53,368 nt of DNA from an uncultured Erysipelotrichaceae bacterium (GTDB taxonomy: Bacteria > Bacillota_I > Bacilli_A > RF39 > UBA660): positions 1 through 53,368 of the forward strand of contig CACZQK010000067.1 in the NCBI GenBank assembly GCA_902783315.1, read 5' to 3'. Below are positions 20,452 to 32,331 of the stretch, piece by piece. Position 1 is the first letter of the stretch. Each line of letters begins with the position of its first letter. The translations under genes were made by a program, and so were the position numbers. The notes below the pieces were generated by a model. The model searched no databases. It saw only the letters and a list, made by a program, of their open reading frames with translations, and was not told the DNA's origin.

Positions 20452-21765
20452 ATGTTAGAACTAAATACTATAGACAAAGAAAAATTTGACTCATTTGTAA
20501 GAAATCATAAAACAAAATCACATTTTTTACAATCAGTTTCTTGGGGAGAATTTGCCAAAGTCAAAAAAAATTTAACCCCTTATTATCTAGGACTAACCAA
20601 TGAAAAAGGAGAAATCTTAGGAGCAACCCTCTTACTTGAAAAAAAGCTCCCACTAAATTTCTGCTACTTTTATGCACCTCGAGGCTTTGTAATAGATTAT
20701 AATAACAAGCACTTAACACAAAGTATGACAGAAAAAATAATAGAGTTTGCCAAAAAGAAAAAAGCTATCTTTGTAAAGATTGATCCAGATATTGTAAAAA
20801 CATCGATAAACTATAAAAATGAGAAGCAAGACAATAATGATTTTGATGAAATATTTACTACTTTAAAATCATGTGGCTTTAAACACTTGGGCTTCACCAA
20901 AAACTTTGAAACAATGCAGCCAAGATATACGTTTCGCATTGATTTAAATCAATCGCTAGAAGAAATAGAAAACCATTTTTCAAAAACGACCAAACAAAGA
21001 ATAGCAAAAAGCATAAAACTAGATACTGAAGTGATAATTGGTACAAAAAACGATATTCATGAATTTTACCATTTAATGACACTAACTGAAAATAGAAAAG
21101 ACTTTGTATCATATAACGAAGACTATTACGAAACTTTATATGAAATATTTAATGGAAATAAAAACAGTAAAGCCACCTTGTTCTTGGGAAAAGTACATAT
21201 AAACAAAACCATAAAAGCTCTTGAAAAAAACTTAAAAGATATTAACAATCAAATTTCTATTTTACCAATAGACAATTTAAGCAAAAGTGCTAAAACCAAA
21301 CTAGCTGAATTAACAAAACAAAAAGAAAATACGATAAATGAAATTGAAAAATACAAAGAATATAAAAAACAGTATGGCTTAGATTTAACCCTTAGTGCCC
21401 ACATGATAATTGAATATGGTGATAAAGCATGGGTTCTATATGCAGGAAACCACAATATTTTAAGTGAAACTTACGTTAACTATAACACCTATTTTGAGCA
21501 TATTAAATATTGTAAACAAAAAGGCATAAAAATTTATGATCAGTTTGGTACAATAGGCGATTTATCTAAAGAAAATCCTAGATTAGGATTACATGAATTT
21601 AAGAAAAAGTTTGGTGGAGATTATATTGAATTTATTGGAGAATGGGACTATATAATAAATTATCCTATGTATTTTATTTTTACAAAATTAGTTCCAATTT
21701 ATCGTAAAATAATAAAGCAAAAAAGCAAAAAGGAGTTAAAACATGAAATTAGTAAATCTGAATAA
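20452..21765 (+). CDS. FemAB-family peptidoglycan interpeptide-bridge aminoacyltransferase (paralogue 1)
   Basis: 437 aa with FLQSVSWGEFAK and YAPRGF motifs, a central coiled-coil insertion and a C-terminal YDQFG...GLHEFKKKFGG. Confidence 0.85.
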   Translation: MLELNTIDKEKFDSFVRNHKTKSHFLQSVSWGEFAKVKKNLTPYYLGLTNEKGEILGATLLLEKKLPLNFCYFYAPRGFVIDYNNKHLTQSMTEKIIEFAKKKKAIFVKIDPDIVKTSINYKNEKQDNNDFDEIFTTLKSCGFKHLGFTKNFETMQPRYTFRIDLNQSLEEIENHFSKTTKQRIAKSIKLDTEVIIGTKNDIHEFYHLMTLTENRKDFVSYNEDYYETLYEIFNGNKNSKATLFLGKVHINKTIKALEKNLKDINNQISILPIDNLSKSAKTKLAELTKQKENTINEIEKYKEYKKQYGLDLTLSAHMIIEYGDKAWVLYAGNHNILSETYVNYNTYFEHIKYCKQKGIKIYDQFGTIGDLSKENPRLGLHEFKKKFGGDYIEFIGEWDYIINYPMYFIFTKLVPIYRKIIKQKSKKELKHEISKSE

Positions 21766-23029
21766 AGAAGAATTTAAAAGATTTGCAGATAATCACGACC
21801 AAATTACTTTCCATCAAACAGAAGAATGGGCCAACTTAAAAAGACATACTGGATGGAAAGCCTACTATGTAGGGCTAAAAGAAAACCAAAAAATCATCGC
21901 TGCTGCCCTTCTTTTAGCAAAGGAAATACCAGTTATAAGAAAAAAAATGTTTTATTCTCCTAGAGGATTTCTAATTGATTATACTAATAAGGAAGTCTTA
22001 GAAACATTTACAAAGGAAATAAAACGATTTATAAAAAAAGAAAGAGGAATATTCATAAAAATTGACCCTTACGTAGAATATCAAGAAAGAGATAATAATG
22101 GAGATATTGTGGATAATGGCTACAATAACAAAGTAGTAATAGAAAATCTAAAAAAATTAGGATACAAGTTTTTTGGATTTAATATTATGCAAGATACACT
22201 ACAACCTAGATGGATGCACGTGATTGAAATCAATGGGAAAAGCGAAGAAGAAATCCAAAAAGAGATGGAATCAAAAACTAGACAAATATTGCGAAAAAAT
22301 GAGAAAGCCGGCATTAAAACAAGAGAAATAAAGAAAGACGAATTACCTCTATTTAAAAGTATTATGGAACATACAGGAGATAGAAGGGATTTTATTGATC
22401 GCCCACTATCCTATTATGAAGCAATGTGGGACACACTAGAACCAAGTGGAATTTTAAAAATACTGATTGCCGAAATAGATTTTAATGAATATGAAATCAA
22501 TACCAAAAATGAATTAGAAGCAACACAAAAGAATTTAGAAGACAGAATATATAAACATGACAATCAAATATTAAAAATGAATGAAAAAAAATATATATCA
22601 ACAAATAAACAAGACCAAGATTCTATTGAAAGATTAAAAAAGCAAATAAAAAAAATAAAAGCGTATAAAGAAGAATTTGGAGATAGAAAAGTTTTAGGAA
22701 CAATTTTATTTTTAATATATGGAAATGAAGTATTGTCCCTTTTTGGAGGAACAGATGATAACCTATTACAATTTCAATCAGCATATACAGTTCATTACGC
22801 AGGAATAAAATATGCAATAGAGCATGGATATAAGAGATATAATTTCTATGGAATAACAGGAGACTTTACAAGCAAAAACCCACTATATGGATTATATCTA
22901 TTTAAAAAAAGTTTTGGAGGACATGTTGTAGAATTAATAGGAGAGTATGATTTAATAGTTTCAAAATTTTGGTATAATTTATATAAATTAACCTTTAAAA
23001 TATATCACAAGCTCAAAAATAAAAAATAG
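21743..23029 (+). CDS. FemAB-family peptidoglycan interpeptide-bridge aminoacyltransferase (paralogue 2)
   Basis: 428 aa with FHQTEEWANLK, YSPRGF, a coiled-coil insertion and YNFYG...GLYLFKKSFGG. Overlaps paralogue 1 by 23 nt. Confidence 0.85.
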   Translation: MKLVNLNKEEFKRFADNHDQITFHQTEEWANLKRHTGWKAYYVGLKENQKIIAAALLLAKEIPVIRKKMFYSPRGFLIDYTNKEVLETFTKEIKRFIKKERGIFIKIDPYVEYQERDNNGDIVDNGYNNKVVIENLKKLGYKFFGFNIMQDTLQPRWMHVIEINGKSEEEIQKEMESKTRQILRKNEKAGIKTREIKKDELPLFKSIMEHTGDRRDFIDRPLSYYEAMWDTLEPSGILKILIAEIDFNEYEINTKNELEATQKNLEDRIYKHDNQILKMNEKKYISTNKQDQDSIERLKKQIKKIKAYKEEFGDRKVLGTILFLIYGNEVLSLFGGTDDNLLQFQSAYTVHYAGIKYAIEHGYKRYNFYGITGDFTSKNPLYGLYLFKKSFGGHVVELIGEYDLIVSKFWYNLYKLTFKIYHKLKNKK

Positions 23030-23051: not shown

Positions 23052-23951
23052 TTAAACATCATATTGAGTTAAATTATATCTATTGATTGCATTATGCAAA
23101 TTATCAGCATATTTAGCATCTTCCGCATAATGTTTTACACCTTCAATTGCCCCATCAACTGATGAACCTTTTAATTCTGGTCGATAACCAACCATCAAAC
23201 CTAAATAATCCTCAACACAATCCTCAACGCAATCATAAGCACGCATAGAATCAACTCTAGGTGCTTCAAAATAAGCCCCACCAGAGACGCTTCCAGTAGC
23301 ATGTTTGGGATTGCTAGCCCATTTTGGAATGGATACTGAATCATTTCTTGTTCCATCTTTAGCTACAACATAATCGCGAGATCCAAACATTTCAGAATTA
23401 ACATTCAAAATATTATTATTATCATTTAACCAACTACCACTCTTATCCCATCCAGATTCTTGTATAATTTGCGCTAACATAACAGACTTAGGAAAACCAT
23501 ATTTCTTACAATAAGGATCAACAACACTAGACATCTTATCAAGAAATTCCTTTTGTGCCGTCTTATCTCCATTATTAGCTCGATCTCCCAAATCATGAAG
23601 ATCAGAAGCCTGAGTATTACCAGATTTAGTAGAAGTAGTCGTACTACCTGCTGATTTAAATTCTTTCACAGCTTGATTAACAGAAGTTTTATACTCATCA
23701 CTTGCAGAAGATAAGAAACTAGCTGTATCATTAAAAGCTCCTTTCATGCTAGAAATTTTTGCTGAGATTTTACCAAACTCATCTTTACAAGAGTCAGCAA
23801 TAGGTCCCATAAAAATAGACCCACTACTTAATTGTGACTGACATGCTTTAATATCAGATTCTGCTGTATCTATCGCATTATTTGCAGTACTAACATTTTC
23901 GATTGCATTACTAAAATCTCCAAAACTTGAAAAACCATGTGCTTCACTCAT
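23052..23951 (-). CDS. signal-peptide-less protein: helical N-domain + Ser/Thr linker + GH73-type N-acetylglucosaminidase domain
   Basis: 299 aa. The N-terminal ~100 aa are predicted helical with no hydrophobic signal, followed by a GSTTTSTKSGNT linker. The C-domain has MLAQIIQESGW (Glu165) as in FlgJ/GH73 glucosaminidases. Confidence 0.7.
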   Translation of the reverse strand: MSEAHGFSSFGDFSNAIENVSTANNAIDTAESDIKACQSQLSSGSIFMGPIADSCKDEFGKISAKISSMKGAFNDTASFLSSASDEYKTSVNQAVKEFKSAGSTTTSTKSGNTQASDLHDLGDRANNGDKTAQKEFLDKMSSVVDPYCKKYGFPKSVMLAQIIQESGWDKSGSWLNDNNNILNVNSEMFGSRDYVVAKDGTRNDSVSIPKWASNPKHATGSVSGGAYFEAPRVDSMRAYDCVEDCVEDYLGLMVGYRPELKGSSVDGAIEGVKHYAEDAKYADNLHNAINRYNLTQYDV

Positions 23952-24028
23952 ATAATCACATCCTACATTATAATAATTGTACTAAAAAAATAGTAAAAAG
24001 TCCACCTAAACATTTTAAAATCTTAAAA

Positions 24029-24075
24029 CAAAAAAAATTCAACTTTGATGATAATAACACCAATTGAATTTTTTG
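24029..24075 (-). terminator. rho-independent terminator after the WXG operon
   Basis: AATTCAA (24036-24042) pairs with TTGAATT (24064-24070). It is flanked by an A-run and a T-run, so it could act in both directions. Confidence 0.6.
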
Positions 24076-24099
24076 CTTTATAAATACCAACTAATAAAA

Positions 24100-24402
24100 T
24101 TATCCAGCATTTTGAACAACAGCTGTTGCTGCATCCTCAGCTTCTTCATCAGTAGCAACAACTGAAAGAATATGGTCAGTATCTGCATTCATTCTATTAT
24201 AAAAAGCAGGATACTGTGCTTTTATTTCTCCATACATATCTTGAACTTGTCTAGAGCCCTCACCTTGCCAATCTTCAGCCAACTTATTCATTGTAGAAGT
24301 CATTTTATTAAAAATAGCATTTACTCTTTGAGCATTGTCCTTTATTTTTTTTGCCAAATCTCTTGCTGCTTCATAATCGCTTACATCAAATTCTGTTTCC
24401 AT
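24100..24402 (-). CDS. WXG100-family (EsxA-like) protein
   Basis: 100 aa from the ATG at 24402, with a GAGGAGG RBS. W45-Q46-G47 (LAEDWQGEGS) lies between two helices. The start is 1 nt downstream of the stop of the preceding gene. Confidence 0.85.
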   Translation of the reverse strand: METEFDVSDYEAARDLAKKIKDNAQRVNAIFNKMTSTMNKLAEDWQGEGSRQVQDMYGEIKAQYPAFYNRMNADTDHILSVVATDEEAEDAATAVVQNAG

Positions 24403-24403
24403 A

Positions 24404-24724
24404 TTAAACCTCCTCAACTCCTAATTTGGCAGCATTACTTTTATTAGTTCCCTCTGCATCTGAAAGAATACCAGAAGCAGTTTGCAATGCAAGTCCCTTT
24501 TCGTTTAATAATTGTTGAAAATCAGTTATCTTTTTCATTTCTACTTCAAAAACATCTGAAAAAGATATAGCTGAAGCACCATGCCAAATATCCATTAAAG
24601 CATTCTTGTTTGCTCGAAAGCTATTTAATTCTGCTAACAATTCATCAGCATATTTTACCATATAATTTCCATCAGACCTTATTTCTTCTGGACTTGCAAA
24701 CAATCCATTTGTATATTGACTCAT
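24404..24724 (-). CDS. WXG100-family (EsxB-like) protein
   Basis: 106 aa with W47-H48-G49 (DIWHGASAISF). GGAGGA RBS. Confidence 0.8.
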   Translation of the reverse strand: MSQYTNGLFASPEEIRSDGNYMVKYADELLAELNSFRANKNALMDIWHGASAISFSDVFEVEMKKITDFQQLLNEKGLALQTASGILSDAEGTNKSNAAKLGVEEV

Positions 24725-24806
24725 ACGTCTTATTCCTCCTATCTTTTATTTAATTATATAACACTCATTTAAACTTTAACAACAAAAATTACAAAACTTT
24801 ACACAT

Positions 24807-25094
24807 TTAAATACTTAAACCTGATAATTCACCCTCTAAACTTTCAATACTATCAGCTGCTGATTTTACAAACTCCCCTAAAGAATTAATATATTGTGCA
24901 TTAGCTAAAGATGCCTCGACCTGAGCAGAATTAGATCCTTGAAAAGCAACACTTGCATCACCACTCCATGATGATAGCGAACTTTCAATATCAGAAGAAT
25001 AAGTATTAATTGCTGATGAAAGCTGACTTGCTATTTGACACAACTTTTCACCATTTGCTCTTACTTGAGCAAAATCACAAACATATTTTGCCAC
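24807..25094 (-). CDS. WXG100-like protein (start ambiguous: GTG 25094 or ATG 25121)
   Basis: SSWSGDASVAF. From the GTG at 25094, which has a GGAGTGGAG RBS and sits 1 nt after the upstream stop, WSG falls at residues 43-45 of a 95-aa protein. The ORF track instead uses the ATG at 25121. Confidence 0.7.
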   Translation of the reverse strand: MAKYVCDFAQVRANGEKLCQIASQLSSAINTYSSDIESSLSSWSGDASVAFQGSNSAQVEASLANAQYINSLGEFVKSAADSIESLEGELSGLSI

Positions 25095-25095
25095 C

Positions 25096-26142
25096 TTAAA
25101 TCTCCACTCCTTCCTGTTCATTTGTCAATTCTTTAACATTTGAAACATCTTCAACCTTGTTACTAATAATAGATGAAATATTTTTAGTATCACCACTAAC
25201 ACTTTTTGCAGCTGAAGAAAGATTTCGTATATCATAGACACTACCACAGTTTTCAATAATAGAATTATTTTCAATTAATTTATCACAAATTTCAGATCTT
25301 CTCAAAGTTTTACTGTTTTGATCAACAAGGAAATAAAGCTTGTCAGCATTACTCTTCTCATGAGTACTTACTCCTATAACCCCATGAACAACAGTACCAT
25401 CTTTTTGTTTAAATTCAATGACATCTCCTACTTGTCCAACAGAAGAGTCACAAGCAATCACAAAAGAATCTCCAATTGTAGCATAGCCTTCTTTATAATC
25501 AAATTTACTATCTGTAAATAAAGCCTTAGATTCCGTAGTAAGTTCTTTATCTATAACAGCATACCCAGTAGAACTAATTTTAGTATCTACAACACCAACA
25601 CGGTTTTTAACGTCTTCTTCTTCCGCTTTTTCACTCACAGGAACCATTGGAGCAATAGCTGGAACTACACCAGTAGCTAATCCAACTGGGGGAGCATATC
25701 CACCTCCGCCACCTGAGCTACCATTTGAGCCGCCACCCGAGCTACCACGTGAACCACCACCTGAGCTACCATTTGAGCCGCTACCTGAGCTACCATTTGA
25801 ACCGCTACCTGAGCTACCATTTGAACCGCCACCTGAGCTACCATTTGAGCCACCACCTGAGCTACCATTTGAGCCACCAGGAGTAAATTTCATACTATTT
25901 TGAAGATTAGTATGAGAACTACTTACTGTCTCAAGAAGATTTGCAGTATTTTCCATTTTAACTGCACAAGCTTCAATGTTACTAGCAATAACACTTTTAG
26001 CAGAATCAAAATTAAAACCATCCTCACAACTAGTATCATAACCACTAACATTACTAGAAATAGATCTTACTTGAGAAGCTAATGACTGTACAGAACTAGA
26101 AGCCGAATCAAGAGCACTTGTTTCTAAAGAAAATAAAGACAT
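25096..26142 (-). CDS. signal-peptide-less protein: Ser-rich helical N-domain + (GGGSNGSS)x7 linker + unassigned C-terminal domain
   Basis: 348 aa. The N-terminus MSLFSLETSALDSASSSVQSLASQVRSISSNV resembles small Ser-rich T7SS effector-type helices. No TM helix or signal peptide. The ~190-aa C-domain (GYATIGDSFVIACDSSVGQVGDVIEFKQKDGTVVHGVIGV) has an unknown fold. Confidence 0.65.
   Translation of the reverse strand: MSLFSLETSALDSASSSVQSLASQVRSISSNVSGYDTSCEDGFNFDSAKSVIASNIEACAVKMENTANLLETVSSSHTNLQNSMKFTPGGSNGSSGGGSNGSSGGGSNGSSGSGSNGSSGSGSNGSSGGGSRGSSGGGSNGSSGGGGGYAPPVGLATGVVPAIAPMVPVSEKAEEEDVKNRVGVVDTKISSTGYAVIDKELTTESKALFTDSKFDYKEGYATIGDSFVIACDSSVGQVGDVIEFKQKDGTVVHGVIGVSTHEKSNADKLYFLVDQNSKTLRRSEICDKLIENNSIIENCGSVYDIRNLSSAAKSVSGDTKNISSIISNKVEDVSNVKELTNEQEGVEI
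25699..25878 (-). repeat. in-frame 24-bp tandem repeat (~7 copies) encoding a Gly/Ser linker
   Basis: The plus strand repeats ACCTGAGCTACCATTTGAGCCGCC with a few substitutions. It encodes GGGSNGSS units (residues 89-148). Confidence 0.9.
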
Positions 26143-26170
26143 ATAATAGTCCTCCTATCCAAAATATTTA

Positions 26171-27178
26171 TTATTTTGGGCTATATACCCAACCGCTTTT
26201 TGTTTGAGAAGCAACCAAATCCAAGTTCCACCAATGACAATTATCTTTATGCCCGGGATCTGCAACTAACACCTCATTTGTTTCTGAATTATATCCTCTA
26301 GCAACAATAAAATGACCATTACTTGTAAAATCCCCTGGACCCACATTAAGAATAACTAAATTCCCTTGACTTAAGGCTGTTGAAACATTTTGACTAGTAA
26401 CATTTTCCACACTTTCACAAGGAACTCCCATTGCTTCACTATAAGCAGTAAAAAATTCATGATCAGTACCAGAAGAATCATGATAGCCATTCTCAGCACT
26501 CCAGTCAGCAGCTTCATTAGGTGTAACATTTTTTCCAAAAGAAGCCATAACCATAGCCGCTGCACAAGGCCCACACCCAGATTTTCCCATAGTATTACTT
26601 CCACCAGCACTATATTTATAATCAGCCCAACCAGCGCCTTGATTATAATAAACAAAATTATTATCATCTGCCCAATTCTTAATAGCAGAATTTAGGCTAG
26701 TACCAAAAGCCGATAAATTAGAAGTAGAGATAGATGATACATCCAACTTTTCACTAGAAGCTTCCTGCAGCGAAGCTTGAATCTGAACTTTCTTTTCTTC
26801 CATTATTTTAGTATATTTATCAATTTCAGTTTTAAGACGATTCATATCACTTTTAGCTCTACTCATACCAGCAGAGTCATTACAGCTGGCAGCTCGATTA
26901 TAATAGTCAGCAGCTTTTGCATAATTGCTTTGGGCAATTTTCAAATTATCTTTTGCACTCTTATATTCCAAATACAAATCACATGCCTTAGCAAAAGAAT
27001 TCATCTGCTGAGTAATAGTAGTAGAAAAACTACTAGAAAAATCAGCTACTTGAGATTTAAAATTATTATACGAGTCTCCTTGCCAAGCAGCAGACAGTCC
27101 ACTAATAGAAGAATCAAAATTAGAGAAAGAAGACATAAAAGACATCGAATCACTATTTACCATCCCACTCGATACCAT
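26171..27178 (-). CDS. signal-peptide-less protein: WXG/LXG-like N-domain + coiled coil + papain-like (C39-like) cysteine peptidase domain
   Basis: 335 aa with an AAGGAGG RBS. W32-Q33-G34 (LSAAWQGDSYNNF) is followed by a helical region. The C-domain has GKSGC202GPCAAAMV, NGH289FIVARGY and VAD307PG, forming a Cys/His/Asp triad pattern. Confidence 0.7.
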   Translation of the reverse strand: MVSSGMVNSDSMSFMSSFSNFDSSISGLSAAWQGDSYNNFKSQVADFSSSFSTTITQQMNSFAKACDLYLEYKSAKDNLKIAQSNYAKAADYYNRAASCNDSAGMSRAKSDMNRLKTEIDKYTKIMEEKKVQIQASLQEASSEKLDVSSISTSNLSAFGTSLNSAIKNWADDNNFVYYNQGAGWADYKYSAGGSNTMGKSGCGPCAAAMVMASFGKNVTPNEAADWSAENGYHDSSGTDHEFFTAYSEAMGVPCESVENVTSQNVSTALSQGNLVILNVGPGDFTSNGHFIVARGYNSETNEVLVADPGHKDNCHWWNLDLVASQTKSGWVYSPK

Positions 27179-27208
27179 AAATACCTCCTTGCTACCATCC
27201 TATAAAAA

Positions 27209-27237
27209 ATTATATCATCAAATCACTAAATATACAA
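27209..27237 (-). promoter_or_regulatory. candidate sigma-A promoter of the WXG/hydrolase operon
   Basis: Minus strand has TTGTAT (27232-27237), a 17-nt spacer, then TATAAT (27209-27214), about 30 nt upstream of the ATG at 27178. Confidence 0.5.
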
Positions 27238-27359: not shown

Positions 27360-29021
27360 TTACGATAATTTTTTAAAAAATATTTTCTTTCTTATTCTAT
27401 CTAAAACTTTTTTTCCAAAAACTTTCTCTGTAAGTCCACACAAAGTAGAAGAACCAAAATAAGCAAACATCCCTACAATTCCATATATTATAATAATCCA
27501 AACGTTATGAACCCGAACTTTAGAATAAAAAGGGAGAAAAAACTTAACAACAACTAAACAAACAACCATAAAAATAGAACAGCACATAACATCAATAAAA
27601 TTTTTTATAACGGACTCAAAAGAAATAGAGTATTTTTTTTGAAAAACAATTAAACAAATTATAAAAGATACAAAATAACCAATAATAGTAGCTGTAATAG
27701 CCCCATAATAAGCAGGAAATCTCATGTGAACAAAAGCAAGTAAAAATTTATTATTAAAAAAAACTTTTAATAAAACACCAACAGACAAACTAAAAAACAC
27801 AGCCTTAAAATCTTTTAGAGTTTGTAAGACAATAACAACAAATGAGAAAAGTCCAACAAATAATCCAATAAAAATATAATAAGATAATATATTAGGACCA
27901 TAAACACTATTCCCATAAAACAAAATCCAAATAGGTTTAGCAAGAAAACTAATTCCCAAAGTAAGCGGAATTGTTAAATATAACAAAATATTTAACCCTT
28001 GAATGATTTTTTTGTGAATTTGTTTTCTTTCTTCTTTAACCATACATTCAGTAAGATTAGGAATTAAGCTAACAATAATGCCTGATGAAATTGCCAAAAT
28101 AATCATGTTAAATTTTTGTGCCCACGTAGAAAAAATAGAATAAATTGTCTCGGCGTCCCCAGGAGAAAAAGATGCCTTTTTTACTAAAAATTTTACAAGA
28201 GTAACCATATCAGTATAACCATAAAAAGACTTAAATAAATCTATAAAAACAAAAGGAATAGCATAATAAAATATTTTTTTTATAATGACTTTATTTACAA
28301 TAATTGGTTCATTCACTGAATAATAAGACGCTTGAAACTTCTTTTCATTTTTTGATTTTTTTAAAAACAAATAAGCATACGAGCATAAAGCTCCAACGGT
28401 TGCTCCAAACAAAGCAACAGCAACACAATTGGTCAAATCAAAATGAAAGACTTTTAAAAAAAGAAAACTACCAAAGATAATCACTAAAACTCTTATAAAT
28501 TGCTCTAATACCTGTGAAAGAGATGAAGGTCCAAAAAAACGATGTCCTTCAAAATATCCTCTATAAACACTAAGTAGTGGTACAATTAAAATTGCAATGC
28601 CAATAACCCGAATAACAAAAGTAATATCTTGAACTGTATTTCCTCCAACAACATCTCCTAAAATTATCTTTGCTAAAAAGGGCGCAAAAAAGAACACAAA
28701 AGCAAAACAAGAAACACCTAATATTACAGCAACTCTTTTGCCTAAAACAAGTGTTTGAGCTTTAGCTTTTTGAAATCCTAAAGCTTTATACTCTGAAACA
28801 ACCTTGCTAACTGCCAGGGGAATTCCCGCAGTAGATAAAGATAATAACCCATTATAAATAGTATAAGCATACCCATAAAGAGCTCCACCTTTTTCACCAA
28901 TAATTGCATGAAATGGAACAACGTACAAAGCCCCTAAGACCTTAGACAAAACAATGCCAATAGTTGTAATAAAAGTGCCCGTTAAAAATGTTGATTTTTT
29001 CATAATAATATTCTTTTTCAT
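27360..29021 (-). CDS. MOP-superfamily flippase (MurJ/SpoVB/YtgP-like)
   Basis: About 553 aa with about 14 TM helices. The N-terminus FLTGTFITTIGIVLSKVLGALYVVPFHAIIGEKGGALYGYAY is typical of YtgP/SpoVB-type proteins. GGAGG precedes the ATG at 29021; the track start at 29045 lacks an RBS. Confidence 0.8.
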   Translation of the reverse strand: MKKNIIMKKSTFLTGTFITTIGIVLSKVLGALYVVPFHAIIGEKGGALYGYAYTIYNGLLSLSTAGIPLAVSKVVSEYKALGFQKAKAQTLVLGKRVAVILGVSCFAFVFFFAPFLAKIILGDVVGGNTVQDITFVIRVIGIAILIVPLLSVYRGYFEGHRFFGPSSLSQVLEQFIRVLVIIFGSFLFLKVFHFDLTNCVAVALFGATVGALCSYAYLFLKKSKNEKKFQASYYSVNEPIIVNKVIIKKIFYYAIPFVFIDLFKSFYGYTDMVTLVKFLVKKASFSPGDAETIYSIFSTWAQKFNMIILAISSGIIVSLIPNLTECMVKEERKQIHKKIIQGLNILLYLTIPLTLGISFLAKPIWILFYGNSVYGPNILSYYIFIGLFVGLFSFVVIVLQTLKDFKAVFFSLSVGVLLKVFFNNKFLLAFVHMRFPAYYGAITATIIGYFVSFIICLIVFQKKYSISFESVIKNFIDVMCCSIFMVVCLVVVKFFLPFYSKVRVHNVWIIIIYGIVGMFAYFGSSTLCGLTEKVFGKKVLDRIRKKIFFKKLS

Positions 29022-29084
29022 AGTGCCTCCAATATTATTATACAAAAAAACAATATCACATAAAAGTAATTTATAAATTTATCG

Positions 29085-29523: not shown

Positions 29524-32331
29524 TTATTTTACAACAATATTAACAATTTTACCTTTAATAATAATTATTTTAACAATTTCATGCCCCTCAATATGTTTTA
29601 AAACATTATCACATTCCATTGCCTTATCTTTAATTATTTGTTCATCATCATCGATAGAAATAGTAATTGTTCCACGTACTTTACCATTAACTTGAACTGC
29701 AATTTCTTTTGTATGTTCTACTATCTTTTCTTCATCATACTTAGGCCATTCACTTTCACAAATTGGTTTATAACCTATTGCTTCATTTAATTCTTCCGTA
29801 ATATGAGGAGCCATTGGATTTAATAAAACTAGCAACAAATGATAATCATCTTTAGTAATTGATTCTAAATCATCATAAGCATTTACTAAAATCATTAAAC
29901 TAGAAATAGCTGTATTGTATCCCATATGTGTGATATCATATTCTATCTTCATAATGGTTTTATTTTGTAAAACTTCTAAAGATTCCGTAAAACCTTTTTT
30001 ATCATTCAATTTATCTTTTAAACGAATTACTTTATCTAAAAATCTACGACATCCTCGTAAAGAATCAGTACTCCAAGGAGCATCCATCTGATAGTCACCC
30101 ATAAACATCTCATAGATTCTTAATGTATCAGCACCATATTCATGAATAATATCATCTGGATTAATAACATTACCTTTAGACTTACTCATTTTCTGATTAT
30201 CACTACCAAGAACCATACCATGACTAACTCTAGTCCAAATCATTTCTTTAGAAGGAACTAAACCAATATTATATAAAAATTGCACCCAAAATCTTGCATA
30301 TAACAAATGTCTTGCGGTATGTTCCATACCACCATTATACCAATCAACACGATTCCAATATTTCATTTTATCCATTGAAGCAAATTCCTTATCATTATGC
30401 GCATCCATAAAACGTAAAAAATACCAAGAAGATCCTGCCCAGTTAGGCATTGTATCTGTTTCTCTTTTTGCAGCACCTCCGCATTTTGGACACTTACAAT
30501 TTACCCAATCAGTAATATTTGCAAGAGGACTTTCACCATCTTCTGTTGGTTCATATTCAGCAACATCTGGAAGCAGTAATGGTAAATCCTCTTCATTCAT
30601 AGGTACCCAACCACATTTTGGGCAATTAATCATTGGAATTGGCTCTCCCCAAAATCTTTGCCTTGAAAAAACCCAATCTCTCATCCTATAATTAATTTTC
30701 TTTTTTCCACAATGATTATCTTCTAAAAATTGAATCATTTTATTAATAGCTTCTTCTTTATTCATACCATTAAGAAATCCAGAATTAATATGAATACCAT
30801 CTCCTACCATTGCACCAGGATTCATGGCATATTCATAAGTTCTATGATGTAAAGCATCTTTAACTTCATCAATTTGCTTTTTAGATACCCATTCTACATC
30901 AAATATTTCATCATCATCCAAACGTTGATCCCTACGCTTATCAGACTTTAACTTAAAATAAAAACCCGTAGACTCAGTATTATAATACTTACCCTTAGAA
31001 AATGCATAATAATGGTGAAAGATCTTTGGTAATTCACTAACAAATTCTAAATCATAATAACCAGTCTCTTCTTCTATTTCTCTTTTTGCACACTCTAGCG
31101 GATCTTCTCCATCATGAATAGTACCGCCAATAAAACATCTGCCACCTTTATCATGCCAGTTAAGCGTCAAAAATTTATCTTCTTTTTCATCGTAAACAAC
31201 AGCTACGATAGAAGTCTTATTTAACTCATTTTCATGAGGTTCACCAGAAACCTCTTCCAATACTTGAACAATTGGAATATTATATTTAATCGCAAACTCA
31301 TAATCTCTTTGATCATGTGCAGGAACTGCCATAATAGCACCAGTACCATAAGTAGCTAAAACATAATCACTAATATATATTGGAATCTTTTCCTTATTAA
31401 CAGGATTTATAGCATAAGCTCCCGTAAATACTCCCGTCTTATCTTTATTAAGCTCCGTACGTTCCATGTCGTTCTTAAAAGAACACTCTTTTTGATATGC
31501 TTCTACTTCTTTTTTATGCTCTTCTGTTGTGATTTCACTAACATAAGGATGTTCAGGAGCTAATACACAATAAGTGACACCATAAAGTGTATCACACCTC
31601 GTTGTAAATACTGTAAATTTCTTATCATGACCTTCTATTTTAAAATCGATATGTGCACCCTCAGATTTACCAATCCAATTGATCTGACCAAGTTTTACTC
31701 TCTCAGCAAAATTAGTCTCATCAAGTCCTTTTAATAAATCTTCTGCATAATCACTCATACGAAGCATCCATTGACTTTTTTCTTTCTGTTCTACTTGAGA
31801 ACCACATCTTTCACAAACTCCTCCTGCAGCATCCTCATTACTAAGAACACTCTTACATGTTGGACACCAATTGACAGGAATCGTATCTTTATAAGCCATG
31901 CCATGCTTATAAAATTGTAAAAACTGCCATTGTGTCCACTTATAATAATCGGAATCAGTAGTTGAAAATTCCCTACTCCAATCAAAAGAAAATCCTAATG
32001 ACTTCATTTGTTTTTTAAATGTTTTTATATTCTCCTTAACAGCCTCCTTAGGATGTATATGATTTTTTATAGCATATTGTTCAGCAGGCGCCCCAAAAGC
32101 ATCCCATCCCATAGGATATAGAACATTATACCCTTGTAATCTCATCATACGAGCCATAGCATCCTGAGCAGTATAACTCCTAACATGTCCAACATGTAAT
32201 CCAGAACCACTTGGATATGGAAACTCAACTAAAATATAATAAGGTTTCTTCTTATTATTTTCCTTTACTTCAAAAGTATGATGCTTATCCCAATAATTCT
32301 GCCACTTTTCCTCAATATTTCTATAATTCAT
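29524..32331 (-). CDS. leuS: leucine--tRNA ligase with an inserted Nudix hydrolase domain
   Basis: 935 aa with HVGH (HIGH motif), KMSKSKGN, the CP1 editing domain (TTRCDTLYG...AVPAHDQRDYEFA) and zinc-knuckle cysteines. Residues ~362-507 are an extra domain with a perfect Nudix box, G403-x5-E-x7-REIEEETGY. Confidence 0.93.
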   Translation of the reverse strand: MNYRNIEEKWQNYWDKHHTFEVKENNKKKPYYILVEFPYPSGSGLHVGHVRSYTAQDAMARMMRLQGYNVLYPMGWDAFGAPAEQYAIKNHIHPKEAVKENIKTFKKQMKSLGFSFDWSREFSTTDSDYYKWTQWQFLQFYKHGMAYKDTIPVNWCPTCKSVLSNEDAAGGVCERCGSQVEQKEKSQWMLRMSDYAEDLLKGLDETNFAERVKLGQINWIGKSEGAHIDFKIEGHDKKFTVFTTRCDTLYGVTYCVLAPEHPYVSEITTEEHKKEVEAYQKECSFKNDMERTELNKDKTGVFTGAYAINPVNKEKIPIYISDYVLATYGTGAIMAVPAHDQRDYEFAIKYNIPIVQVLEEVSGEPHENELNKTSIVAVVYDEKEDKFLTLNWHDKGGRCFIGGTIHDGEDPLECAKREIEEETGYYDLEFVSELPKIFHHYYAFSKGKYYNTESTGFYFKLKSDKRRDQRLDDDEIFDVEWVSKKQIDEVKDALHHRTYEYAMNPGAMVGDGIHINSGFLNGMNKEEAINKMIQFLEDNHCGKKKINYRMRDWVFSRQRFWGEPIPMINCPKCGWVPMNEEDLPLLLPDVAEYEPTEDGESPLANITDWVNCKCPKCGGAAKRETDTMPNWAGSSWYFLRFMDAHNDKEFASMDKMKYWNRVDWYNGGMEHTARHLLYARFWVQFLYNIGLVPSKEMIWTRVSHGMVLGSDNQKMSKSKGNVINPDDIIHEYGADTLRIYEMFMGDYQMDAPWSTDSLRGCRRFLDKVIRLKDKLNDKKGFTESLEVLQNKTIMKIEYDITHMGYNTAISSLMILVNAYDDLESITKDDYHLLLVLLNPMAPHITEELNEAIGYKPICESEWPKYDEEKIVEHTKEIAVQVNGKVRGTITISIDDDEQIIKDKAMECDNVLKHIEGHEIVKIIIIKGKIVNIVVK

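Follow-up and report, generated by a model that had tools for sequence, protein, structure and literature searches.

Esx-type N-domains on predicted cell-wall hydrolases: a conserved gene module of uncultured Bacilli with features of type VII secretion substrates

How could cell-wall hydrolases that carry no export signal be delivered to the wall? This question is raised by six consecutive ORFs on the minus strand (positions 23052-27237) of DNA from an uncultured rumen/gut Bacilli bacterium, analysed as a 53-kb window (the whole stretch of DNA under study). They encode three large proteins (299-348 aa) and three small (~100 aa) WXG100 proteins. As the initial annotation had stated, none of the six shows an export signal: a hydrophobic N-terminal segment or a positively charged n-region is absent from every one. 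The placement of the module between FemAB-type genes and a MurJ/SpoVB-type flippase gene was likewise correct. The flippase gene (27360-29045, minus strand; precomputed Pfam matches to Polysacc_synt and MurJ) is the conserved upstream neighbour and occupies the same position in six related loci (L014, L017, L021, L025, L029 and L032). Downstream, two overlapping FemAB-family genes (20452-23029, plus strand; 437 and 428 aa; Pfam FemAB) are convergent with the module and also conserved, with 77-91% identity between species irrespective of the cargo. EssC is absent from the 53-kb window, as claimed before, because its longest ORF does not exceed 935 aa.

The three small proteins are of the WXG100/Esx type with a W-x-G turn at residues 43-49, as first proposed. 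W1 (24807-25094, minus strand; 95 aa from a GTG start, in an ORF that reaches to 25121), W2 (24404-24724, minus strand; 106 aa) and W3 (24100-24402, minus strand; 100 aa, in an ORF that reaches to 24417) match Pfam WXG100 with E-values of 4.8e-6, 1.7e-8 and 1e-8, and with scores of 27.2, 35.1 and 35.7 bits (cut-off 27.3); the L024 orthologue of W1 scores 39 bits. The turns are WSG at 43-45 in W1, WHG at 47-49 in W2 and WQG at 45-47 in W3, and W3 also matches NCBIfam TIGR03930 (E 1.7e-10). The genes are tightly packed: W1 starts 1 nt past the class B stop codon, with its Shine-Dalgarno sequence inside the class B coding end, and W3 starts 1 nt past the W2 stop codon. W1 orthologues in 10 loci are 44-74% identical, W3 orthologues are present in related loci, and W2 is related to W1 (hhalign 95%). 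Because three adjacent genes match WXG100 and the module is conserved in ~10 species, chance origin is ruled out.

The large proteins carry WXG100-like helical N-domains of three distinct classes (A, B and C), each joined to a C-terminal domain. The class A protein (26171-27178, minus strand; 335 aa) opens with three helices that form a WXG-type domain (aa 1 to ~145); a disordered stretch (146-165) links this to the Peptidase_C39_2 domain at the C-terminus (Pfam E 4.6e-22). The papain/C39-like peptidase predicted from residues C202, H289 and D307 was thereby confirmed, and these residues are invariant in 19 homologues. The AAWQGDS motif is present as described, at residues 30-36 rather than 31-37, with WQG at 32-34. 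An AF2 model (pLDDT 84.6) places helices at 4-26, 35-98 and 102-141, the WXG turn lying between the first two. Foldseek matched the protein to the C39-like peptidase 3erv, the phytochelatin synthase-like Alr0975 and the pseudomurein endoisopeptidase PeiR (E 2e-5 to 2e-4); the N-domain gave generic helical matches only. The N-domain aligns with W1 (hhalign 50%), 24 of 107 representatives of its family match Pfam WXG100 at E <= 1e-3, and the L024 class A protein reaches the threshold at 27.4 bits, in agreement with the Esx-type N-domain assigned earlier. The C39_2 domain is a papain-like peptidase that would presumably have peptidoglycan as its substrate; in a different lineage, a homologue of this domain (P0022) has a hydrophobic anchor at its N-terminus, which fits an extracytoplasmic substrate.

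The class C protein (23052-23951, minus strand; 299 aa) ends in a GH73 N-acetylglucosaminidase domain (Pfam Glucosaminidase E 2.2e-16), with E165 in QESGW as the initial annotation had read it. Its helical N-domain has an FMGP turn (aa 47-50) that is invariant in 18 homologues, and the whole of this N-domain can be aligned with W3 (hhalign 62%, E 8e-5). The class B protein (25096-26142, minus strand; 348 aa) starts with a helical hairpin that lacks WXG, continues through a Gly/Ser/Asn repeat linker and ends in an unassigned beta-rich C-domain of ~120 aa. Conserved motifs are a GYDTSCEDGF loop in the N-domain and C..G.VGD in the C-domain. The match to Pfam WXG100 is weak (E 0.016), profile comparison of the N-domain by hhalign gave no significant similarity to WXG100, and the hairpin (8-33/45-83) comes from a low-confidence AF2 model (pLDDT 41). 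Its (GGGSNGSS)n linker was recovered by Tandem Repeats Finder as 7.2 copies of a 24-nt repeat (25706-25879, minus strand), close to the seven copies noted before; the repeat length differs among strains, whose variants of this protein are 339 and 347 aa. Searches of Pfam, PDB and PHROG with the class B C-domain returned no match; in paralogues of L021 and L025 it precedes an ELLD/NlpC-P60 domain, and by this arrangement it looks like an accessory domain. Of the "two, possibly all three" hydrolases proposed for the module, the C39-like and GH73 proteins stand, and the third, the 348-aa protein, has a C-domain that matches nothing.

Direct reading of the sequence upstream of the class A gene gave the TTGTAT-17-TATAAT site reported before (27209-27237, minus strand), a candidate promoter with a TG extended -10; the class A ATG is preceded, at a distance of 7 nt, by an AAGGAGG ribosome-binding site. 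A consensus promoter scan did not list this site because its -35 hexamer matches in 3 of 6 bases only. The terminator proposed after the last Esx gene is also supported as a prediction: between W3 and the GH73 gene, an AT-rich hairpin is followed by the U-run UUUUUUUUGUUUU (24024-24080, minus strand) and folds at -16.1 kcal/mol (z = -3.9; none of 200 shuffles was as stable). A G+C-based terminator scan did not list it. A 148-nt gap separates the class C gene from W3, and the gap of L019 is interrupted by a transposase-like gene. The class C gene is probably a separate transcription unit.

To what extent is the family dedicated to wall hydrolases? The class A N-domain family comprises 267 representative clusters in which the domain is always N-terminal and total lengths are mostly 290-470 aa. 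Cargos among 107 representatives were NlpC/P60 (22), C39_2 (14), ELLD (13), CHAP (12), M23 (9), M15_4 (6), S9/esterase (~6), VanY (3), phage lysozyme (3), Amidase_5 (3), GH73 (2) and NAGPA (1); class C cargos were GH73 (7), Phage_lysozyme2 (5), C39_2 (4) and NAGPA (1). The recognisable class A cargos are thus almost all cell-wall hydrolases, and no nuclease or NADase was found among the 25 most frequent families of the class A census. These censuses bear out the dedication to wall hydrolases suggested for this locus and extend it.

A survey of related genomes for co-occurrence and synteny, as the initial annotation had proposed, found the module in ~10 species of uncultured Bacilli MAGs, usually between murJ and femAB, with the three WXG100 genes co-encoded in every locus. 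On MAG contig CAMNUE010000007.1 the order is class A (ELLD), class C (GH73), class B, W1, W2 and W3, 96 nt upstream of a gene for a 1542-aa FHA and FtsK_SpoIIIE protein, homologues of which are named 'type VII secretion protein EssC [Bacilli bacterium]' by NCBI. This adjacency (L024) was seen in one species only, and a close relative has prolyl-tRNA synthetase genes at that position. Separation from essC, described earlier as an 'orphan' placement, is the usual arrangement in the lineage. In essC operons, the small protein S3 is paralogous to W2 (hhalign 87%) and to W1. Membrane components of the EsaA/EssB type were not seen in the vicinity of essC in this lineage.

From these data we consider the locus to be, with fair probability, a T7SSb substrate battery with cell-wall hydrolase cargo, exported via WXG100 complexes and EssC. 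W1-W3 would bind the N-domains of the large proteins to form helical-bundle pre-secretion complexes (composite WXG100 complexes), these would be recognised by an EssC ATPase whose gene would lie outside the window, and the catalytic domains would cut peptidoglycan once exported. Points that speak against this reading are the lack of T7SS core genes in the window, the single case of essC adjacency, the missing Pfam LXG match, the class B N-domain with neither WXG nor significant profile similarity to WXG100, and the lack of EsaA/EssB-like components near essC.

LXG toxins with Lap partners (T7SSb; S. intermedius TelA-D; PMC5555719, PMC10765036) are likewise two-domain, signal-peptide-free proteins, in which a conserved N-terminal helical targeting domain, with a conserved x-G turn near residue 30, is followed by a variable C-terminal domain; they too have co-encoded small helical proteins and many loci away from the essC cluster. 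The module proteins differ in that their N-domains give no Pfam LXG match, in their turn (WxG in class A, FMGP in class C) and in carrying wall hydrolases rather than nucleases, NADases, lipid II phosphatase or pore formers. LXG toxin partners are DUF3130/DUF3958 proteins, whereas the module partners are WXG100 proteins and DUF3130/DUF3958 were matched in none of the module searches. Another difference, which counts against the substrate-battery reading, is that no immunity gene lies between the large genes in any locus examined, unlike in described T7SS, T6SS or polymorphic toxins.

LXG toxins have small helical partners, and S. aureus EsaD has three: its helical N-terminal region needs the WXG100-like EsxB, EsxC and EsxD (mBio 2023, PMC10653861), and the module also has three small proteins. 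EsaD is, however, a nuclease with immunity protein EsaG and chaperone EsaE inside the ess locus; the module has neither, is remote from essC, and has one set of small proteins for three large substrates that each belong to a different N-domain class. EatA of Mycobacterium abscessus, a cell-wall glycanase toxin secreted by ESX-4 with partners TapA1 and TapA2 (T7SSa; Nat Commun 2026, PMC13444075), is also an enzyme that degrades a wall polymer and has a helical-bundle N-domain. NlpC/P60 and alpha/beta-hydrolase payloads, both also present in the module family, are predicted in Actinomycetota (PMC13444075). Unlike the module, EatA belongs to Actinomycetota T7SSa, targets arabinogalactan and is paired with its own immunity protein, EatI. 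Nucleases and TNT toxins are also among the payloads of that system, while nearly all cargos of the module family are wall hydrolases.

M23, NlpC/P60 or glucosaminidase enzymes secreted against neighbours, as proposed for the module, are found among bacteriolysins and T6SS Tae/Tge, which leave the cell by Sec or T6SS and not by the T7SS route favoured for the module. Tae/Tge are wall-degrading effectors; the bacteriolysins lysostaphin and zoocin A have FemAB-like immunity, and lif and zif adjoin their genes, as femAB-family genes adjoin the module. Since these are 77-91% conserved whatever the cargo, they are more likely to be housekeeping genes than dedicated immunity. Tox-NlpC/P60 and Tox-Glucosaminidase have been listed only with T6SS/PVC trafficking (PMC3482391).

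The same export route could instead serve the cell's own autolysins for growth, division or sporulation, bypassing Sec. This is the less probable case, although several features agree with it: the lack of immunity genes, the conserved position among the wall-synthesis genes murJ, femAB and (in L024) murD in ~8 species, the combination of a glycosidase with endopeptidases in each main locus, as in autolysin sets, and a census of essentially wall enzymes only. Against it, C39 is swapped for ELLD at the orthologous position in sister species, and some loci have grown to 5-9 large genes, with accessory loci in addition; these swaps and expansions look like the arsenal of an arms race rather than a set of housekeeping orthologues. 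LysM, SH3b and CWB, the modules by which autolysins usually bind the wall, are absent from the Pfam cargo censuses, and the M23, CHAP, Amidase_5 and phage lysozyme cargos overlap with bacteriolysins and phage lysins.

Two further explanations appear improbable. The hydrolases might be helpers of the secretion machine that open the thick wall locally for T7SS assembly or substrate passage, like EssH, a Sec-exported single accessory enzyme without WXG domain or polymorphic cargo. This is very unlikely, since the module mostly lies far from essC and 3-9 diverse enzymes per locus, with solitary and accessory copies, go far beyond the need of a conduit, even though the L024 module adjoins essC, the cargos include CHAP and NlpC/P60, and EssH, a CHAP peptidoglycan hydrolase tied genetically to the T7SSb locus (PMC13059805), is required for S. 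aureus T7SSb secretion (PMC10765036, PMC13059805). Least likely of all is that the module bypasses T7SS altogether: lytic proteins of intracellular or phage origin would then use the helical N-domains as coiled-coil or oligomerisation domains, and the essC link would be coincidental. The lack of a T7SS core in the window, the single essC adjacency, the likeness of the catalytic domains to phage endolysins and tail lysins and the generic Foldseek matches of the N-domain are consistent with this, but phage genes surround the module in no locus, three bona fide WXG100 genes always accompany it, N-domain family members reach the Pfam threshold, W1 and W2 have paralogues in the essC operon, and wall hydrolases that could not leave the cell would never meet a substrate.

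For the substrate battery that we favour, biological role is the least certain point. We lean towards a bacteriolysin-like attack on neighbouring Gram-positive cells, with remodelling of the producer's own wall as a serious alternative. In either role, wall hydrolases targeted by Esx-type domains would be type VII cargo of a sort for which no description from Firmicutes is known.

The six module genes lay in a row on the minus strand (23052-27237) as ORFs of 335, 348, 95, 106, 100, and 299 aa, as the initial annotation had described; its observations were confirmed throughout, and the few corrections were trivial and concerned residue numbering only. The ribosome-binding sites were of the GGAGG type, and the intergenic gaps were 28, 1, 82, 1, and 148 nt. 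The promoter-like sequence TTGTAT-17-TATAAT was found as claimed, and the module was flanked, as stated, by two FemAB genes and a gene of the MurJ/SpoVB type. The claimed terminator corresponded to an AT-rich hairpin with a U-run (-16.1 kcal/mol, z = -3.9) 3' of the last small gene, so that the GH73 gene could plausibly be transcribed as its own unit. In one strain, W3 and the GH73 gene are separated by an inserted transposase-like gene (HTH_38; L019, 3660-4790), which is consistent with such independence. The proteins lack Sec signals: a hydrophobic or positively charged N-terminus was absent from all six. The conserved C-terminal tail 'EGVEI' of the 348-aa protein (25096-25110) and the conserved tail 'GVEEV' of W2 (24404-24420) each overlap the Shine-Dalgarno sequence of the gene that follows. 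Together with the 1-nt gaps, this overlap indicates translational coupling from the 348-aa gene to W1 and from W2 to W3 rather than a C-terminal secretion signal; 'EGVEI' is probably not such a signal, being encoded by the Shine-Dalgarno sequence of the following gene.

The three small proteins, W1 (95 aa), W2 (106 aa), and W3 (100 aa), had been assigned to the WXG100 family from their W-x-G turn, and profile searches agreed. They matched Pfam WXG100 (PF06013) with E-values of 4.8e-6, 1.7e-8, and 1e-8, respectively. Against the cut-off of 27.3 bits, W2 (35.1) and W3 (35.7) were above and W1 (27.2) was just below, and the W1 orthologue in L024, a related locus with the module beside essC, reached 39 bits. 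All three matched NCBIfam TIGR03930 but under its stricter cut-off of 44.85. The turn (WSG at 43 in W1, WHG at 47 in W2, and WQG at 45 in W3) was kept across the orthologue alignments. The size of about 100 aa, the family score, and the central W-x-G turn identify W1-W3 as WXG100 proteins.

The N-domains of the large proteins fell into three classes, with the signatures MVSSG...SWxG...ACDLY in class A (335-aa protein, 26171-27178), MS[LIV]F...GYDTSCEDGF in class B (348-aa protein, 25096-26142), and an invariant FMGP turn in class C (299-aa protein, 23052-23951). Support for the claim that they are Esx-like came from classes A and C. The AF2 model of class A (pLDDT 84.6) had three helices, at 4-26, 35-98 (the long one), and 102-141, with the WXG turn between the first two; an alpha/beta peptidase domain came after a disordered linker. 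A WXG100 match at E <= 1e-3 was obtained for 24 of the 107 full-length representatives of the class A family, and the class A protein of L024 was at the Pfam WXG100 threshold (27.4 bits). In hhalign comparisons, class A aligned with W1 (50%, E 1.6e-4), and class C aligned over its full length with W3 (62%, E 7.7e-5). Class B was predicted to form a helical hairpin at low confidence and gave no significant profile similarity to WXG100 in hhalign; the AF2 model of the 348-aa protein, built from a 9-sequence alignment, had a pLDDT of 41 and was too poor for a fold search. Foldseek with the N-domain returned generic helical matches only. None of the three large proteins matched Pfam LXG (PF04740) at E <= 1, and LXG was not seen among the families listed in the class A and class C cargo censuses. 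The N-domains are WXG100-like, yet outside the LXG family.

As for the C-terminal domains, the papain/C39-like Cys peptidase proposed for the 335-aa protein was recovered as Peptidase_C39_2 (PF13529; 4.6e-22, 79.6 bits against a cut-off of 24), and C202, H289, and D307 were invariant among 19 homologues. Foldseek with this domain retrieved 3erv, Alr0975, PeiR, and staphopain C; a pseudomurein endoisopeptidase and a gamma-glutamyl peptidase are among its structural neighbors. A C39_2 homologue in another lineage bears a membrane anchor, which fits an extracytoplasmic peptide substrate. By its profile, Cys/His/Asp triad, and fold, the domain is predicted to be a papain-like C39_2 peptidase, the substrate of which would presumably be peptidoglycan. 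The 299-aa protein matched the GH73 family (Glucosaminidase, PF01832) at 2.2e-16 and 61 bits, the cut-off being 30.2; it has the catalytic Glu E165 in QESGW, as annotated, and is thus a putative N-acetylglucosaminidase. In another locus (L010, 18878-19900), the class C N-domain (175 aa) and the GH73 domain (161 aa) were two adjacent ORFs, the latter 79% identical to the GH73 domain of the window; this represents either a frameshift or a genuine split.

The repeat linker reported for the 348-aa protein is encoded by a 24-nt tandem repeat of 7.2 copies (25706-25879). This Gly/Ser/Asn-linker repeat differed in copy number between strains (total lengths of 339, 347, and 348 aa), and in the L003 assembly the gene call was broken at it. 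The domain behind the linker gave nothing significant in Pfam, NCBIfam, or PHROGs, and its best matches among PDB profiles, uL14 and hERG PAS, had E-values of 0.4-0.7 and were taken as chance; a 3D/RlpA-like barrel is our guess. Class B proteins bear this domain either alone or with ELLD/NlpC-P60 behind it, an arrangement suggestive of an accessory function, perhaps in wall binding, rather than of catalysis.

The class A N-domain, at 65% identity, was fused to C39_2, Peptidase_M15_4, or DUF7017, and sister species had an ELLD/NlpC-P60/Amidase_5-like domain at the position of the C39_2 domain of the window. Searched exhaustively with a profile, 1.84 billion representative proteins yielded 267 representative clusters in which the class A N-domain was present at E <= 1e-3. 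Of the best 150 of the 267, all but one had the domain starting no later than residue 15, and total lengths were mostly 290-470 aa. The 107 full-length representatives carried at least 10 cargo families: NlpC/P60 (22), C39_2 (14), ELLD (13), CHAP (12), M23 (9), M15_4 (6), S9/esterase-type alpha/beta hydrolases (~6), VanY (3), phage lysozyme (3), Amidase_5 (3), GH73 (2), and NAGPA (1). Class C cargos were GH73 (7), Phage_lysozyme2 (5), C39_2 (4), and NAGPA (1). The cargos were therefore strongly biased to cell-wall hydrolases in both censuses, which upholds the dedication to such enzymes noted from the window. No nuclease, NADase, deaminase, or pore-former was among the 25 most frequent of the 56 matched class A families, and with 25 of 56 covered, rare exceptions may occur. 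The family thus shares the architecture of polymorphic toxins, in which a conserved N-terminal trafficking domain is followed by diverse C-terminal domains. A sizeable minority in the class A census (A7, A11) had alpha/beta-hydrolase cargos (Peptidase_S9, Esterase, BD-FAE, and DLH) in place of peptidoglycan hydrolases; these enzymes could act as esterases on wall modifications or be TslA-like lipases.

The window belongs to a 118-kb metagenome scaffold with a G+C content of 29%, and near-identical copies were present in assemblies from the rumen of sheep and cattle. All relatives found when species-representative genomes were scanned with a 7-sequence N-domain alignment were uncultured MAGs; their labels were Bacilli, Bacillales, Erysipelotrichaceae, or Clostridia, and their sources were rumen, sheep gut, and human (Hadza) gut. 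A BLAST map of 13 genome loci and of metagenome loci showed that all were built from classes A, B, and C and orthologous W1, W2, and W3. Main loci contained one to three class A, one or two class B, and zero to three class C genes in addition to W1-W3, and were usually situated between murJ and femAB (the window, L014, L017, L021, L025, L029, and L032). Accessory loci (L022 and L030) had the order [A][A][A][W1][C][C], and solitary class A or class C genes occurred amid housekeeping genes. The module is thus a conserved lineage-wide system. A prophage or endolysin cassette was rejected as its origin: the flanks were without phage genes, and PHROG matches were confined to the catalytic domains. 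Elsewhere in the window (29524-32331, minus strand), a leucyl-tRNA synthetase of 935 aa contains an internal NUDIX domain according to precomputed Pfam annotation, and in sister species the enzyme is 802 aa long and without NUDIX. It is unusual for an aminoacyl-tRNA synthetase to have a Nudix hydrolase inserted.

The longest ORF of the window is 935 aa, so that EssC is not encoded there, as had been noted. In L024 (MAG contig CAMNUE010000007.1), the module is arranged as [A-ELLD][C-GH73][B][W1][W2][W3], and 96 nt downstream is a gene for a 1542-aa protein with FHA and FtsK_SpoIIIE (7e-48) domains. This protein had 181 homologues at E <= 1e-50, several of which are named 'type VII secretion protein EssC [Bacilli bacterium]' by NCBI. 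The homologue search indicated a wide occurrence of essC in the lineage. Downstream of it, all species examined had an 84-aa gene and then about six genes encoding soluble helical proteins of 96-160 aa. Among these proteins, S3 is paralogous to W2 (hhalign 87%) and W1 (67%), and S6 matches WXG100 weakly and contains an NWEG motif. Adjacency of the module to essC was confined to the species of L024, and prolyl-tRNA synthetase genes took the place of the module by essC in a close relative. The essC loci and the window shared no synteny. The 'orphan' arrangement recognized in the window is therefore the norm in the lineage. The survey of related genomes supported synteny of the module with murJ and femAB, but adjacency to essC in one species only.

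The compact essC operons (L024, 13882-20099; L033, 10001-16999; L036, 10001-17016; L041, 4001-11032; L042, 10001-17010) were flanked by housekeeping genes that differed between species. Their 84-aa gene is EsaB/YukD-like by size and position only, with no Pfam match. No genes for EsaA-, EssA-, or EssB-like membrane proteins were found within 10 kb of essC (4 kb in L041), and the system of this lineage may be a reduced or divergent T7SSb. By analogy with LXG-Lap and EsaD-EsxBCD (PMC10653861), W1-W3 would pair with the N-domains to form helical bundles recognized by EssC, and export would place the hydrolases on peptidoglycan. As W1 is the only small protein encoded in the accessory loci, it is predicted to pair with classes A and C. 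The initial interpretation was largely supported by the comparative evidence.

The biological role is the least certain step of our explanation. An antagonistic, bacteriolysin-like role is favored by cargo swapping and gene expansion. Self-directed autolysis is favored by the fixed position among wall-synthesis genes and by the total absence of interleaved immunity genes. In the window, L022, L025, L029, L030, and L032, the large genes were contiguous with gaps of 1-120 nt, no ORFs lay between them, and the immunity gene directly downstream of each toxin that marks polymorphic-toxin systems was missing. The missing genes and the fixed position could alternatively reflect self-protection by wall chemistry. 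The only candidate extracytoplasmic immunity protein seen in any locus is a small lipoprotein encoded by a convergent gene after [A][A][A][W1][C][C] in L022 (7992-8447, minus strand; 151 aa) and L030 (10437-10934, minus strand; 165 aa); neither gene product had a Pfam match.

We also considered femAB as dedicated immunity genes of the lif/zif type and rejected this, since they were 77-91% conserved whatever the cargo. A femAB gene was also present beside the essC region of L042, where the module is absent. Both observations indicate that these are probably housekeeping genes. Speculatively, and at a rather low probability, the T7SS of this uncultured Bacilli lineage could be a dedicated signal-peptide-independent exporter of wall hydrolases, in which three Esx-like N-domain classes are read by three WXG100 adaptors, and the battery would consist at least partly of the cell's own autolysins, or of bacteriolysins countered by wall chemistry (FemAB cross-bridges) and not by immunity proteins.

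The substrates known for T7SSb comprise small WXG100 proteins and LXG toxins, the latter being nucleases, NADases, a lipid II phosphatase, lipases, and membrane depolarizers. The N-domain family of the module is distinct from LXG, and the presumed partners here are WXG100 proteins. Reviews of 2023 and 2026 list no peptidoglycan hydrolase exported by T7SSb (PMC10765036, PMC13492133); EssH acts as an accessory hydrolase and is not itself a substrate (PMC10765036, PMC13492133, PMC13059805). In the 2012 catalogue of polymorphic toxins, Tox-NlpC/P60 and Tox-Glucosaminidase occur with T6SS/PVC trafficking only (PMC3482391). The nearest precedent is the actinobacterial ESX-4 substrate EatA, a cell-wall arabinanase with Tap partners, the study of which also predicts NlpC/P60 and alpha/beta-hydrolase payloads (PMC13444075). 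The wall-hydrolase cargo described here would parallel this mycobacterial toxin, but EatA has an immunity protein, whereas the module has none. The module combines a probable Firmicute T7SSb, cargo that is almost exclusively wall hydrolases, and no immunity genes.

Because no exported T7SSb peptidoglycan hydrolase appears in those reviews, a family of Esx-type targeting domains dedicated to wall hydrolases would add a new cargo class in Firmicutes. With immunity genes lacking, the question arises of how the producer achieves self-protection. The system would also make it possible to test directly how EssC selects folded enzymes with composite WXG signals, and its enzymes could supply new lysins from rumen and gut bacteria. 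If the reading of dedicated export is true, T7SSb would gain a housekeeping role in wall remodeling, without toxin-immunity pairing.
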